Counted from the first letter of the stretch, positions 1,112-18,721 are shown. The stretch is 64,000 nucleotides of DNA from a bacterium (GCA_028824415.1 JAPPDX010000134.1:13175-77174); one strand, 5' to 3'. Notes: a model not told the origin generated them from the letters alone. Program-made: numbers and translations.

Positions 1112-1668
1112 GCACGCTGGTCGTCCTCTGCCACCCCGTGCCGGAGAGCTTCGTGACGGCCGTGGCCGCGCAGGTCGTCGAGACGCTCGACGACGCCGGT
1201 GCCGAGCCACGGCTGCTGAACCTGTACGCCGAGGAGTTCTCGCCGACGGCAGCCGGCGCAGCGGTCGTCGAGGCACACGGCGAGGAACTGCGCAACGCGA
1301 ACGCGCTGGTGCTCGTGTACCCCACCTGGTGGAGTGGCCTGCCGGCGATGCTCGCCGGCTGGCTGGAGCAGGTCGTGGCCGGCGGCTCGACGCCGCGGCC
1401 GGGCAGACCCGAGACGACCGCATCCAGTCGCGAGCTGCTGGCGAACCTCCGTTACGTGGCTGCGGTCACCACGCACGGGTCCTCGAAGTACGTGAACGCC
1501 GTGCAGGGCGAGGCGGGCCTGCACTTCATGCGGCACAGCATGCACCCGCTCTGCCCGGCCGACTGCCGGCTCGTCTGGCTGGCCTTCTACGGCTCCGACA
1601 TCTCGAGCATGGCAGACCGGCGTGCATTCCTCGCCCGCGTCGACCGTCGCCTGCGCAAACTCGCCTAA
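1108..1668 (+). CDS. Flavodoxin-like NAD(P)H dehydrogenase (quinone) family
   Basis: VVLCHPVPESF, LLNLYAEEF, LVLVYPTWWSGLPAMLAGWL; GTGA overlap with upstream gene. Confidence 0.85.
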   Translation: MSTLVVLCHPVPESFVTAVAAQVVETLDDAGAEPRLLNLYAEEFSPTAAGAAVVEAHGEELRNANALVLVYPTWWSGLPAMLAGWLEQVVAGGSTPRPGRPETTASSRELLANLRYVAAVTTHGSSKYVNAVQGEAGLHFMRHSMHPLCPADCRLVWLAFYGSDISSMADRRAFLARVDRRLRKLA

Positions 1669-4415
1669 CGCTTCCCTGCGCCGACTTCCGCCAGGAGCCG
1701 GCGCACCACGAACGGGACGATGCCGCCGTGGCGCCAGTAGGTCGCCTCGGCATCACTGTCGAGGCGCACCGTCAACGGGAACCGTCGCTCGGCACCGCCC
1801 GTTGAGATTGCGACCAGCATGGCCGCCCCACCGGGAGCCGGACCCCCCTGCAGTCCGGTGATGTCGTAGCTCTCGGTGCCGTCGAGCCCTGCCGAACGCC
1901 AGCCTTGCCCGCTGGCGAACTCAAGCGGCAGGACGCCCATGCCGACCAGGTTCTGGCGGTGCAGCCGCTCGAAGCTCTCCGCCACAACCGCCCGTACGCC
2001 CAGGAGCGCCGTGCCCTTGGCCGCCCAGTCTCGCGACGACCCCGCGCCGTAGCCGGAGCCCGCCAGCACCACCAGAGGTGTCGCCTCGCGGCGGTAGCGC
2101 TCGGCGGCCTCGTAGATCGCCATGACCTCGCCGCCGGGCTGGTGGGTCGTCCAACCCCCTTCCCGGTCGCCGGCGAGATGGTTCAGCAGCCGAGGGTTGG
2201 CGAAGGTCGCACGCACCATCACGTCGTGGTTGCCCCGTCGCGCGCCCAGGATGTTGAACTGCTCGGGTGCAACGCCGCGTTCGAGGAGGTGGCGGCCCGC
2301 CGGGCTGTCCGGATGGATCAGCCCTGCGGGCGAGATGTGGTCGGTCGTGATGGCGTCGCCGAGCAGCAGCAGGCAGCGGGCAGCCCGGATGTCGGTGGTC
2401 GGCAGCGGCTCGGGCGTGACCGTGTCACAGAAGGGGGGCTCGTTGATGTATGTGGAGTCCGGATCCCAGGAGGGCAGGACCGATGGCTCACCACCCTGCG
2501 AGAGCCAGCGCCGATCGCCGCTGAAGATGTCCTCGCCGCGGGCGGCGAACAGTTCAGGGGCCAGAACCTGGTCGACCTCCCGGCGGATCTCGCCGTCGTC
2601 GGGCCAGAGTTCGGCCAGCAGCACCGGCACCCCGTCGGCGTCGAGCGCGATCGGCTCCGACGTCAGATCGATGTCGACCGTTCCGGCGAGGGCGTACGCC
2701 ACGACGAGGGCGGGCGAGGCCAGATAGCCCAGCCGGCACTGCGGGTGGATGCGTCCCTCGAAGTTCCGGTTCCCCGAGAGGACGGCGGCGACCGACAGGT
2801 CATGGTGCTCGACGGCTGCCGCCACCGGCGCGCCCAGCGGCCCGGAACCGCCGGCGCAGGTGGTGCAACCGAAGCCCACGATGGCAAAGCCGAGCTTCTC
2901 GAGATGGCGCAGGAGTCCCGACCGCTCCAGGTAGTCCGCCACGACCGGTGACCCGGGCGCCAGGCTGGTCTTCACGTGAGAGGGCGTCGCCAGTCCGCGC
3001 TCGACCGCGTTGCGGGCCAGCAGTCCCGCGCCGATCATCACCGCCGGATTGGACGTATTGGTGCAGCTCGTGATGGCGGCGATGACCACGTCGCCGTCGC
3101 GGACCCCGGCTGTGGCGGATGCGCCGGAGGGCCTCGGACCGGCACCGCCGGGTTCGCCGGAGTCCGCACCCGCCGCCCCGGTCGAGGCTGCCAGGCCGCG
3201 CTCGGCCAGCGCCGCGGCGAGCGACTCCGGGACCTCTCGCAACGTCAGGGTCTGGGTGGGCCGCGAGGGTCCCGCCACCGTCGCCGCCACAGCGCCCAGG
3301 TCGAACGGCATCACCCTGCTGAAGGCCGGAGCCGGGTCGTCGGGCGTCCGGAACAGCCCCTGAGCCTTGCAGTAGCGCTCGACGAGGTCGATGTGCGCCG
3401 GGGGTCGCGCCGTCCGGCGCAGGTAGTGGAGCGTCTCGGCGTCCGGGGCGAAATATCCGATCGTGGCCCCGTACTCGGGAGCCATGTTGGCGACCGTGGC
3501 CCGGTCCTCGAGGCTCAGGAAGTCCAGGCCGGCACCGAAGAACTCCACGAAGGCGCCAACGACACCCTCATCCCTGAGTGCCCGCGCCACTGCCAGCACC
3601 AAGTCGGTGGCGGTGACGCCCGCGGCGGGTCGCCCTGTCAGCCGCACGCCTACGACCTCGGGCACGACCAGGTCGATCGGCTCGCCGAGCATCACGGTCT
3701 CGGCCTCGATGCCGCCGACGCCCCAGCCCAGCACACCCAGCCCGCCGATCATCGTGGTGTGCGAATCGGTGCCCACCACGGTGTCGGGCCGGACAACCGC
3801 ATCGCCGCCGGCCCGATCCACCGACACGACCGAGGCCAGGAACTCCATGTTCACCTGATGCACGATGCCCCTGCCCGGCGGCACCACCCGCAGGTTGGCG
3901 AAGGCCTGCTCGGCCCAGCGTGCGAAACCGAAACGCTCCGCGTTCCGCTCGTACTCGAGGGCCAGGTTGGCCGCGTGGGCACCCGGTGCACCCGCCACGT
4001 CCACCTGTAGCGAATGGTCGATCACCAGATCGGTCGGCGTGTTGAGATCCACCCGCTCGGGGTCGCCGCCGGCTCGCTGGACGGCACTGCGCACCGCAGC
4101 CACGCCCAGCAGAGCCGGAATGCCCGTGAAGTCCTGCAGGACCATCCGGCCGGGACGGAACGCCACCGAGCCTCCCCCGGTGTCCGGCTCGGCCCAAGCC
4201 GCCAGCGCCATGACATCGGCCGCCGTCCCCTCCGGCGATTCGCCGTTGGCCAAGCTCTCCTCGGCATACCGCAGCGCGCCCTCCAGCAGCACCTTGATGC
4301 TCACCGGCAGCCGGCTCACGGCGCCGAGCCCGAGTTCTTCGAGGCGGCTCAGGCGGTAGTAGCGAAGCGCACCGGTGGCGGTGCGGAGCGCGGCCTCCGA
4401 TCCGAAGGCGCTCAA
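1665..4415 (-). CDS. acnA: Aconitate hydratase, AcnA type
   Basis: LQDFTG, GTDSHTT, ITSCTNTSN, GCTTC, GNRNFEGR, TTDHISP, GSSRDWAAKG. Confidence 0.93.
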   Translation of the reverse strand: MSAFGSEAALRTATGALRYYRLSRLEELGLGAVSRLPVSIKVLLEGALRYAEESLANGESPEGTAADVMALAAWAEPDTGGGSVAFRPGRMVLQDFTGIPALLGVAAVRSAVQRAGGDPERVDLNTPTDLVIDHSLQVDVAGAPGAHAANLALEYERNAERFGFARWAEQAFANLRVVPPGRGIVHQVNMEFLASVVSVDRAGGDAVVRPDTVVGTDSHTTMIGGLGVLGWGVGGIEAETVMLGEPIDLVVPEVVGVRLTGRPAAGVTATDLVLAVARALRDEGVVGAFVEFFGAGLDFLSLEDRATVANMAPEYGATIGYFAPDAETLHYLRRTARPPAHIDLVERYCKAQGLFRTPDDPAPAFSRVMPFDLGAVAATVAGPSRPTQTLTLREVPESLAAALAERGLAASTGAAGADSGEPGGAGPRPSGASATAGVRDGDVVIAAITSCTNTSNPAVMIGAGLLARNAVERGLATPSHVKTSLAPGSPVVADYLERSGLLRHLEKLGFAIVGFGCTTCAGGSGPLGAPVAAAVEHHDLSVAAVLSGNRNFEGRIHPQCRLGYLASPALVVAYALAGTVDIDLTSEPIALDADGVPVLLAELWPDDGEIRREVDQVLAPELFAARGEDIFSGDRRWLSQGGEPSVLPSWDPDSTYINEPPFCDTVTPEPLPTTDIRAARCLLLLGDAITTDHISPAGLIHPDSPAGRHLLERGVAPEQFNILGARRGNHDVMVRATFANPRLLNHLAGDREGGWTTHQPGGEVMAIYEAAERYRREATPLVVLAGSGYGAGSSRDWAAKGTALLGVRAVVAESFERLHRQNLVGMGVLPLEFASGQGWRSAGLDGTESYDITGLQGGPAPGGAAMLVAISTGGAERRFPLTVRLDSDAEATYWRHGGIVPFVVRRLLAEVGAGKR

Positions 4416-17972: not shown

Positions 17973-18091
17973 CGGCCCACCGCTTCCTGGAGGATCCCGG
18001 CGGTCCCGCCGCCGGCGTCCGAACCCGCGGCGACGCCGGTGAGGGTCATCAGGTGCGGGGAGGGCCCTCTGGAACCGGGCCGTTCATCCCC

Positions 18092-18721
18092 TCAGGCCAC
18101 GATCATGTCGGCGCCGACGCGCTCGAGCGTCTGGGGATCGCCGACCCGCAGGGCGAGATGCATGACCTGCGCGTTGAACTCGATCCCGATGGTGCGCTCG
18201 GCGGCGTTCTCCACGGTGTCGGCCACGACCAGCAGGCCGTGGTTCTGCCAGACCACGCCGTGTCGCTCACCCATGATTTCCAGCATCTCGGCGACGAACG
18301 CCTCGTCGCGGCGGTGGCGGAACGGCATGATGGGGATGCTGCCGTTGGCCGACTTCAGGCCGGTCGTGGTCACCGGCAGGATGTCCCGGTTCAAGGCTCC
18401 GAACGCGTTCACGTACGGCGGCTCGGTGTGCAGCACGGCAAAGACCTCCGGGCGCGCCGCGTAGACGCCCACGTGCAGGAGCGCGTCATACGACGGGTCG
18501 AGGCGACCGTCCAGCTGCGTCCCGTCCGGGGCGAGTACGACGAGGTCGTCGGGTGTCATGTCCTCATACGGATACGCATGCGGGGTGATCACGACGTTGC
18601 CCGTGTCCCGATCGCGGGCACTCAGATTTCCTTGGGACGCGGGCATCAGCGACGACGCAGAGAGCCGCTTCATCGTCACCGTGATGCTGTGACACAAGTC
18701 CGCCGCCACCAGATCAGCCAC
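18092..18721 (-). CDS. Class II aldolase/adducin family (FucA/AraD-like)
   Basis: QGNLSAR, PSYDALLHVGVY, VLHTEP, QNHG. Confidence 0.88.
   Translation of the reverse strand: MADLVAADLCHSITVTMKRLSASSLMPASQGNLSARDRDTGNVVITPHAYPYEDMTPDDLVVLAPDGTQLDGRLDPSYDALLHVGVYAARPEVFAVLHTEPPYVNAFGALNRDILPVTTTGLKSANGSIPIMPFRHRRDEAFVAEMLEIMGERHGVVWQNHGLLVVADTVENAAERTIGIEFNAQVMHLALRVGDPQTLERVGADMIVA

Follow-up and report, generated by a model that had tools for sequence, protein, structure and literature searches.

A citrate synthase-PrpF-aconitase gene set joined to a sugar operon in a probable sponge-type actinobacterium: a putative variant of the AcnD/PrpF kind

We analysed a 64,000-nt stretch of bacterial DNA (GCA_028824415.1, JAPPDX010000134.1:13175-77174; hereafter the window, whose numbering is used unless a contig or locus is named) with regard to a run of genes that ends in a citrate-synthase-family enzyme, a PrpF-family isomerase and an AcnA-type aconitase (together, the trio). 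The source genome is 3.19 Mb in size, with 70% G+C, 138 contigs and 91% completeness. Its nearest public relatives are metagenome-assembled genomes (MAGs) of the Acidimicrobiia/Acidimicrobiales, several of which are sponge-derived as judged from their isolate names, and the host is probably a sponge-type actinobacterium. An earlier note on this DNA had described 14 co-directional genes at 1665-18721 as one sugar catabolic run. An open reading frame (ORF) listing, frame-specific third-position G+C content (GC3) and family scans recovered all 14 on the minus strand, from a class II aldolase (18721) to the aconitase (1665; Table 1).

The genes are closely packed. The two permease genes overlap by 4 nt, as do those of the isomerase and the aconitase, and 2 nt separate the synthase from the isomerase; the remaining junctions are mostly 7-46 nt, with two larger ones of 119 nt and 179 nt. 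The 2-nt gap and the 4-nt overlap argue for co-translation within the trio. Between the aldehyde dehydrogenase (ALDH) and the synthase the gap is 46 nt, and an AGGAGG is placed 7 nt ahead of the synthase ATG at 6897. The earlier note had named a terminator at this point as something that would speak against its reading; no terminator-like site was found there, and the gap folds no better than shuffled sequence (z = -0.05). A promoter scan found nothing, and window 1-20000 had no match to Rfam families. The run is probably one operon with two functional parts, a sugar part and the trio. The longest ORF at 8455-9531 (358 aa) was rejected as an Arg-rich false frame, the real gene there being the permease at 8481-9497 in another frame.

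Table 1. Genes and sequence features of the 14-gene run, in window coordinates.
Feature	Position (nt)	Strand	Evidence
AcnA-type aconitase, 916 aa	1665..4415	-	TIGR01341, 1116 bits (cut-off 945)
GCTTCAGGSG (AcnA: GCTTCIGNSG), segment past third Fe-S ligand Cys	2841..2870	-	
PrpF-family isomerase, 449 aa, GTG start	4412..5761	-	PF04303, 296 bits
Palindromic in-frame insertion, REP (repetitive extragenic palindrome)-like, part of ~40-aa low-complexity loop of the isomerase	5301..5385		Inverted repeat 5312-5349
Type II citrate/2-methylcitrate-synthase-family enzyme, 377 aa	5764..6897	-	PF00285, 390 bits
NAD(P)+ aldehyde dehydrogenase, hydrolytic type	6944..8458	-	PF00171, 591 bits
ABC permease 2 (BPD_transp_2)	8481..9497	-	PF02653, 106 bits; GC3 0.9 in frame
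ABC permease 1 (BPD_transp_2)	9494..10537	-	PF02653; weak AraH/RbsC-like NCBIfam matches
Single-domain ABC ATPase, CUT2-like sugar importer	10486..11253	-	PF00005; extent backed by frame plot
Cupin, ureidoglycolate-lyase family, ~200 aa	11298..11900	-	PF04115, 64 bits; GC3 frame plot
GFO/IDH/MocA oxidoreductase b	11912..13045	-	PF01408
Xylose-isomerase-like TIM barrel enzyme	13053..14105	-	PF01261
Periplasmic sugar-binding protein (Peripla_BP_4)	14285..15355	-	PF13407; weak PDB matches to ribose-binding proteins
GFO/IDH/MocA oxidoreductase a	15356..16495	-	PF01408 and its C-terminal domains
FGGY-family sugar kinase	16479..17972	-	FGGY_N and FGGY_C; XylB model 234 bits (below 380 cut-off)
Class II (FucA-like) aldolase, 209 aa, first gene	18092..18721	-	PF00596, 132.6 bits

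The aconitase had been read in the earlier note as AcnA-like, and our comparisons agree. It passes the AcnA equivalog cut-off and scores 744 bits on the AcnD model TIGR02333 (cut-off 1419.85), on which five true AcnD proteins (Burkholderiales) reached 1754-1829 bits and ordinary AcnA 750-840 bits. A tree of 28 sequences placed the PrpF-linked aconitases of Acidimicrobiales in a single clade (support 100, stem 0.53); the ordinary AcnA of other Acidimicrobiales stood separately (stem 0.13), and AcnD was set apart by branches of 0.65 + 0.65 (support 100 each). Both the model score and the tree thus rule out that the enzyme is an AcnD. Aligned to IRP1 (2B3X), it keeps DSHTTM, NMxPEYGAT, SCTNTSNP, NRNFEGR and SSRDWAAKG.

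The departure reported past the third cluster-ligand Cys is real and clade-wide. All 11 PrpF-linked Acidimicrobiales aconitases read CTTC-AGG-SG, ordinary AcnA CTTC-IGN-S/AG (11/11), true AcnD CTTC-NGM-SG (5/5, one with CTSC) and the PrpF-linked enzyme of Chitinasiproducens CATC-GGN-SG (n=1). Specifically, 12 positions that are invariant in the 11 ordinary AcnA sequences are changed in the clade; true AcnD deviates at 8 of the 12, and at 3 of them small residues occur in two or more PrpF-linked lineages. In place of the Ile past the third Cys, the clade has Ala, AcnD has Asn and the Chitinasiproducens enzyme has Gly. We take this Ile to be IRP1 Ile507 (mitochondrial Ile425), which is presumably to be counted among the conserved active-site residues. 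One invariant Lys is Ala or Ser in the clade and Ala in both AcnD and the Chitinasiproducens enzyme, and one invariant Asn is Ala or Gly in the clade, Ala in AcnD and retained in the Chitinasiproducens enzyme. Among PrpF-linked short aconitases (the linked members being those compared), the residue past the third Cys is Ala or Pro.

We also note that in Chitinasiproducens palmae (L088/L106) the AcnA-like gene lies immediately upstream of a PrpF gene and its product scores 839 bits on the AcnD model; it is another non-AcnD aconitase with PrpF linkage. The window aconitase further contains an Ala/Gly/Ser/Pro low-complexity stretch (~3080-3230, residues ~395-445), at which tblastn alignments split in several genomes of the genus; this suggests that here too, as in the isomerase, an in-frame insertion varies.

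The isomerase scored 263 bits on TIGR02334 (cut-off 440.55), with the match split by an insertion. An insertion-free member of the same subfamily (L046) scored 344 bits on this model, and the shortfall of the window protein is partly owed to its ~40-aa low-complexity loop. The loop varies among orthologues, several of which are without it, and copies of the REP-like insertion within it occur on contigs C10, C74 and C117 (89-93% identity over 44-66 nt). The SLSK and GNCGN motifs align to the catalytic K73 and C107 of Shewanella oneidensis PrpF (2PVZ), and the Lys and Cys are invariant across 15 subfamily members. The best solved relatives are the PrpFs of prp clusters, 2H9F (PA0793) and 2PVZ (SoPrpF). 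In the PrpF tree the subfamily formed a clade of 20 rows (support 100), separated from AcnD-linked PrpF by branches of 0.54 + 0.54. This clade also takes in relatives from Binatia and Terriglobia that have no citrate synthase beside them; what lies near them (luciferase-like oxidoreductases, a peptidase, an Iso_dh gene) gives no functional clue. More distant PrpF homologues (33-40% identity) lie ~0.1-1.5 kb from a PrpB-like lyase at L081, L086, L087, L089, L092, L095-L097 and L102. No synthase was found near those loci, which represent a different PrpF pairing.

The synthase scored 407.9 bits on TIGR01800 (cut-off 421.3), while a protein of the same clade at L046 scored 454.6 bits. Its translation carries the canonical motifs GFGHRVYRTRDPR, LHGGA, HELNAST, NVDYYS and RVAGW, which we assign to the catalytic His/His/Asp and the oxaloacetate-binding Arg/His residues. 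All 16 PrpF-linked synthases formed one clade (support 100), apart from the PrpC of E. coli and Burkholderiales and from other type II synthases of Acidimicrobiales.

The trio is not the sole tricarboxylic acid (TCA) cycle or methylcitrate set of its genome, which also encodes a type I citrate synthase (split across the ends of contigs C28 and C64), two other aconitases and an isocitrate lyase. One of these aconitases, of the mitochondrial type (1076 bits, above the 825 cut-off), is on C112 at ~2 kb from the isocitrate lyase gene (C112 20895-27816), and the two look like the housekeeping pair of the TCA and glyoxylate cycles. The other is a short PRK07229-type enzyme on C102/C117, and LeuC is present too. 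Given such additional synthase and aconitase genes, here and in five module-bearing genomes of other phyla, the trio can be ruled out as a housekeeping TCA set. The short aconitase belongs to a second tricarboxylate-like cluster that runs across a contig break, from C102 (L142) to C117 (L143:1-5104). This cluster holds genes for hydantoinase A and B, an enoyl-CoA hydratase, the aconitase, an AMP-dependent ligase and, on the opposite strand, an MmgE/PrpD-family protein; no NCBIfam model matched the last of these at E 1e-30 or better.

As reported earlier for the window, prpB, prpD and prpE homologues were also not found on the whole of the window's contig. No PrpD was found in the genome, and E. 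coli PrpD had no listed tblastn alignment (E 1e-10 or better, over 120 aa). Two prp-like genes occur elsewhere in the genome. One, on C50, is PrpB-like (245 bits against a cut-off of 354; E. coli PrpB is 40% identical), and its orthologue was present in 12/18 genomes of the genus that were searched, counting the window's own. The other is PrpE/Acs-like (38% identity).

In the order sample, orthologues of both the synthase and the isomerase were found in 16/17 other genomes of the genus and in 1/3 genomes of the sister genus. No PrpF of this kind was found in 40 other families of the order, whose best citrate synthase matches were 30-43% identical and so are not orthologues; AcnA-type aconitases were patchy there (10/40 families, 47-57% identity). 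Besides the window's own genome, a class sample gave a PrpF match in 1/300 genomes (44% identity), and a search of plasmids returned only ordinary PrpF (~35% identity).

Outside the family, a search for related loci gave the module in two further settings. The first comprises Candidatus Aldehydirespirator and another Acidimicrobiales MAG (identity of 56% for PrpF, 72% for the synthase and 64-69% for AcnA). The second comprises MAGs labelled Chloroflexota, Dehalococcoidia, Nitrospinota, Tectomicrobia and Proteobacteria (synthase 48-58%, PrpF 44-49%), in which the next gene encodes a 645-aa PRK07229-type aconitase (943 bits, above the 612 cut-off). In the three loci scanned, from Nitrospinota (L046), Chloroflexota (L050) and Tectomicrobia (L062) MAGs, a MetE-like gene (340 aa) follows this aconitase, over ~8700-14200 in each. 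A benzoylformate-decarboxylase-like thiamine-diphosphate enzyme at L046 and a pyridoxal-phosphate enzyme at L050 are extra genes of these loci. No MetE-like gene occurs anywhere in the window's genome. Synthase, isomerase and an aconitase-family gene thus stand side by side, in one and the same order, in five phyla or more, and since each of the five other-phylum genomes checked has 2-3 citrate synthase genes and several aconitases, the module is accessory there too. Taken together, these comparisons point to an uncharacterised accessory module that is probably horizontally mobile.

A simple explanation would be that the synthase and the aconitase are plain isoenzymes that lift entry into the TCA and glyoxylate cycles during sugar use, with the isomerase accessory or idle; the extra copy might also withstand an inhibitor, for instance oxalomalate derived from glyoxylate. 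The aconitase score above the AcnA cut-off and the canonical synthase fit this idea, as do the likely aldehydes of the sugar part (glycolaldehyde, lactaldehyde), which head to glyoxylate or pyruvate, and the GlcD-like FAD oxidase that is added in the Ca. Aldehydirespirator loci. However, across phyla the isomerase is strictly kept between the synthase and the aconitase and has lost none of its catalytic residues, both it and the synthase form dedicated subfamilies, and aconitase residues adjacent to the active site are altered clade-wide. We regard the isoenzyme explanation as the least probable of those considered here.

Instead, we tentatively favour, at somewhat less than an even chance, that the trio handles a 2-substituted citrate, most likely 2-methylcitrate, as a branch of the AcnD/PrpF type. 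The synthase would join an acyl-CoA, with propionyl-CoA as the most likely donor, to oxaloacetate; the resulting 2-substituted citrate would be dehydrated by the altered AcnA-type enzyme; the isomerase would then move the double bond to give an isomer that an aconitase can rehydrate, and cleavage might be left to one of two lyases encoded at other sites of the genome, the PrpB-like enzyme or isocitrate lyase. The trio would be a functional counterpart, and not an orthologue, of the prpC-acnD-prpF branch of the 2-methylcitrate cycle. This proposal draws on the spare synthase, the intact catalytic pair of the isomerase and the AcnD-like departures on the cluster side of an otherwise complete aconitase, and also on the lack of PrpD in the genome and the strict conservation of the three-gene set across phyla. 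With no PrpD and with PrpB-like and PrpE/Acs-like genes present, the aconitase and PrpF pair would fill the PrpD step, a step that AcnD and PrpF of Shewanella have been shown to cover (PMC5690661).

Nonetheless, several observations weigh against the 2-methylcitrate proposal. All three proteins fall below the PrpC, PrpF and AcnD equivalog cut-offs, and in the trees they all fall outside the prp enzymes of Proteobacteria. The neighbours of the PrpB-like gene are an amidase, a hydrolase and a peptide-binding protein and not prp genes, its orthologue was not found in G310, a trio-bearing genome, and no PrpB-like lyase was found within 10 kb of any examined locus with the synthase and the isomerase. 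The genome also encodes methylmalonyl-CoA mutases, which offer propionyl-CoA an alternative outlet. With regard to supply, no known sugar route in the operon gives propionyl-CoA, nor does any operon step make it.

The absence of PrpB from the module in every lineage would fit an end product or a salvage function, and it is possible, though unlikely, that the module centres on aconitate isomerisation. The synthase would then make citrate, the aconitase cis-aconitate, and the isomerase would act as an aconitate isomerase like TarA, TbrA and Adi1, either to produce trans-aconitate, which inhibits aconitase, or to bring stray molecules of it back into the cycle. Aconitate isomerase activity has been proven for members of the PrpF superfamily from Bacillus and Ustilago (PMC11495376, PMC4720413), and the site of the synthase is that of a fully canonical citrate synthase. 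Nonetheless, no tricarboxylate transporter, regulator or trans-aconitate-consuming enzyme lies beside the trio, and salvage explains neither a dedicated synthase nor the conserved changes on the Fe-S side of the aconitase. In addition, the isomerase scores higher against the PrpFs of prp clusters than against other solved members (TarA and TbrA being outside this comparison).

The sugar part of the operon may be read as an import and cleavage route. A CUT2-type ABC system would import a sugar or cyclitol, which the two GFO/IDH/MocA oxidoreductases, the TIM barrel enzyme and the cupin could rework; the FGGY kinase would phosphorylate the product, and the class II aldolase would probably cleave it to dihydroxyacetone phosphate and an aldehyde, which the ALDH would oxidise to the free acid. 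Taken as a set, these enzymes point to chemistry of the oxidise, rearrange and reduce kind, followed by phosphorylation and FucA-type cleavage. The best NCBIfam matches of the aldolase, all below cut-off, are the L-ribulose-5-phosphate 4-epimerase subfamily, ribulose-1-phosphate aldolase and fuculose-phosphate aldolase. Solved relatives are remote for oxidoreductase a (DgpA, levoglucosan dehydrogenase, scyllo-inositol dehydrogenase) and for oxidoreductase b (aldose-aldose oxidoreductase, 1,5-anhydro-D-fructose reductase), and those of the TIM barrel enzyme are 2ZDS and the 2-hydroxy-3-keto-glucal hydratase 8RO4 (59 bits). The cupin is 74-94% identical across relatives, and the ABC ATPase aligns to the first half only of two-domain sugar ATPase models. 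Searches of PDB and NCBIfam for the identity of the sugar gave remote matches only, from which no sugar could be named.

The ALDH contains the motifs ELGGKSP, GQTCIAG and EEIFGPV, and with its hydrolytic Glu and Cys motifs a free acid is the expected product. These motifs rule out a CoA-acylating enzyme that would make propionyl-CoA directly. On the CoA-acylating MMSDH model the protein scores 290 bits (below the 448 cut-off). No CoA ligase or transferase is present in the 14-gene run.

To evaluate whether the trio belongs with the sugar genes, we compared 12 genomes of the family (11 of the window's genus and one of the sister genus). The full 14-gene run was retained in order in 8/12, the sister-genus genome G320 among them. 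Two genomes (G302, G310) have only the ALDH and the trio, and two others (G311, G312) have the trio with a 40-aa remnant of the ALDH. Where relatives have the sugar genes, G312 (L031:5447-8331) has two transposase genes, of the DDE_Tnp_1 and DDE_3 types, and the ALDH is reduced to its last 40 codons ahead of an intact trio.

The Ca. Aldehydirespirator loci present a rearranged version of the operon. Genes for the binding protein, the TIM barrel enzyme, oxidoreductase b, the cupin, the ATPase and two permeases come first; an ALDH lies between the permeases and the synthase in 2/5 loci and none lies there in 3/5. From the synthase the order continues with the isomerase, a PhyH-family dioxygenase, the aldolase (opposite strand) and the FGGY kinase, and then come a GlcD-like FAD oxidase, the aconitase and a second TIM barrel enzyme. 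In all five genomes checked, a single AcnA-type gene lies 0-14 kb downstream of the isomerase on the same strand. Two of the added genes, for the PhyH-family Fe/2-oxoglutarate dioxygenase after PrpF (L038:11256-12170) and the GlcD-like FAD oxidase before the aconitase (L038:14850-16268), have no homologue in the window's genome.

These comparisons cut both ways. Linkage that is kept through rearrangement argues for a functional tie within Acidimicrobiales, whereas the independent occurrence of the module in other phyla and its survival after loss of the sugar genes argue for a self-contained unit. Since the trio outlasts the sugar genes in some genomes and the synthase-isomerase pair occurs in unrelated contexts elsewhere, the module is portable and not sugar-specific. 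The linkage to sugar genes claimed in the earlier note thus holds for most relatives and, in rearranged form, for a second genus, while 4/12 genomes of the family keep the trio without them.

That note had further proposed a dedicated alkyl-citrate route fed by the oxidised aldehyde from the sugar. In such a route the acid from the ALDH would become a CoA ester, be joined by the synthase to oxaloacetate, and pass as a substituted citrate (e.g., hydroxy- or hydroxyalkyl-citrate) through the aconitase and the isomerase. The co-occurrence of sugar genes and the synthase-isomerase pair in two Acidimicrobiales genera despite differing gene order, and the flanking of this pair by transporter and aldolase/kinase genes in Ca. 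Aldehydirespirator, are in line with such a route. So are the ALDH that stays with the trio in two genomes without sugar genes and the lack of a terminator between ALDH and synthase. On the other hand, a CoA ligase or transferase is missing from the run, three Ca. Aldehydirespirator loci lack an ALDH between permease and synthase, the pair occurs in other phyla entirely without sugar genes, and the trio outlives sugar-gene loss, in at least one case through insertion-sequence insertion. We consider this route improbable. A dedicated sugar-fed alkyl-citrate pathway finds no support in an ALDH that yields free acid, a run without CoA ligase or transferase and a synthase with canonical motifs. 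Overall, the gene content, the motif and the AcnA type described in the earlier note were borne out, and the accessory status of the trio agrees with its reading; the feeding of the synthase by a sugar acid was not supported.

A bolder possibility, to which we attach an equally small chance, is that the set represents a new phylum-spanning module whose substrate is a substituted citrate but not 2-methylcitrate. In these sponge-associated Acidimicrobiales, the CoA ester of the ALDH acid, drawn from a marine sugar, would then enter an undescribed alkylcitrate route leading to central metabolism or to a secreted tricarboxylate. What the comparisons show is the gene content, the accessory status, the separate subfamilies, the conserved departures at the active site and the conserved linkage; which compound is handled, in what order the steps run and whether the sugar product is metabolically tied to the synthase are matters that we infer.

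To the best of our knowledge, the CS-PrpF-aconitase set (CS, citrate synthase) has been characterised by no one, and the AcnD/PrpF answer to the stereochemistry of 2-methylcitrate dehydration is known from a single proteobacterial-type enzyme lineage. If our reading is correct, aconitases have turned to substituted citrates on at least two occasions, and the residue past the third Cys ligand would be a candidate specificity switch that is open to mutagenesis. The set is widespread, always accessory and never found with a lyase, and because it is joined to a sugar operon in sponge symbionts that are abundant, the inducing substrate can be sought as a handle on function.

Among systems already described, the tarR-tarA-tarB genes of Bacillus velezensis (PMC11495376), like TbrA and Adi1, also place a PrpF-superfamily isomerase beside TCA chemistry. 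The tar isomerase is paired with a transporter and a regulator, whereas the one here is paired with a synthase and an aconitase; the sole transporter of the 14-gene run is the CUT2-type sugar ABC system, and the run contains no regulator gene. When compared with E. coli AcnA and human IRP1, the window aconitase shares ~50% identity, all catalytic and cluster-ligand motifs and a passing AcnA equivalog score. It differs from them in having Ala and Gly in place of Ile and Asn past the third Cys, in ten more changed AcnA-invariant positions, and in being accessory and PrpF-linked.

The operon in which a gene for a MetE-like zinc enzyme follows that of the 645-aa aconitase (SAR202, Chloroflexota, Nitrospinota, Tectomicrobia and others) shares with the window trio the synthase and PrpF subfamilies, their order, the accessory status and the absence of PrpB. 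In contrast to that operon, the window has an altered AcnA-type aconitase in place of the PRK07229 type, no MetE-like gene and an attached sugar operon.

The closest functional parallel considered is prpC-acnD-prpF, the AcnD-dependent 2-methylcitrate cycle of Shewanella oneidensis, Vibrio and Burkholderiales (PMC5690661). Both systems have as neighbours a type II citrate-synthase-family enzyme, an AcnA-like Fe-S dehydratase of ~900 aa and a PrpF isomerase with its catalytic Lys and Cys kept, in a host without PrpD, and the window aconitase departs from AcnA in the same segment as AcnD does. Unlike the proteobacterial system, the order here is CS-PrpF-aconitase, with neither prpB nor prpR adjacent. 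On the AcnD model the aconitase reaches 744 bits, as opposed to 1750-1830 bits for true AcnD, and it branches inside the AcnA radiation, whereas the synthase and the isomerase fall into clades separate from proteobacterial PrpC and PrpF, and the module is fused to a sugar operon. The window trio may accordingly be described, as far as sequence comparison suggests, as a variant of the AcnD/PrpF kind built on a distinct CS-PrpF-aconitase module and joined here to a sugar operon.

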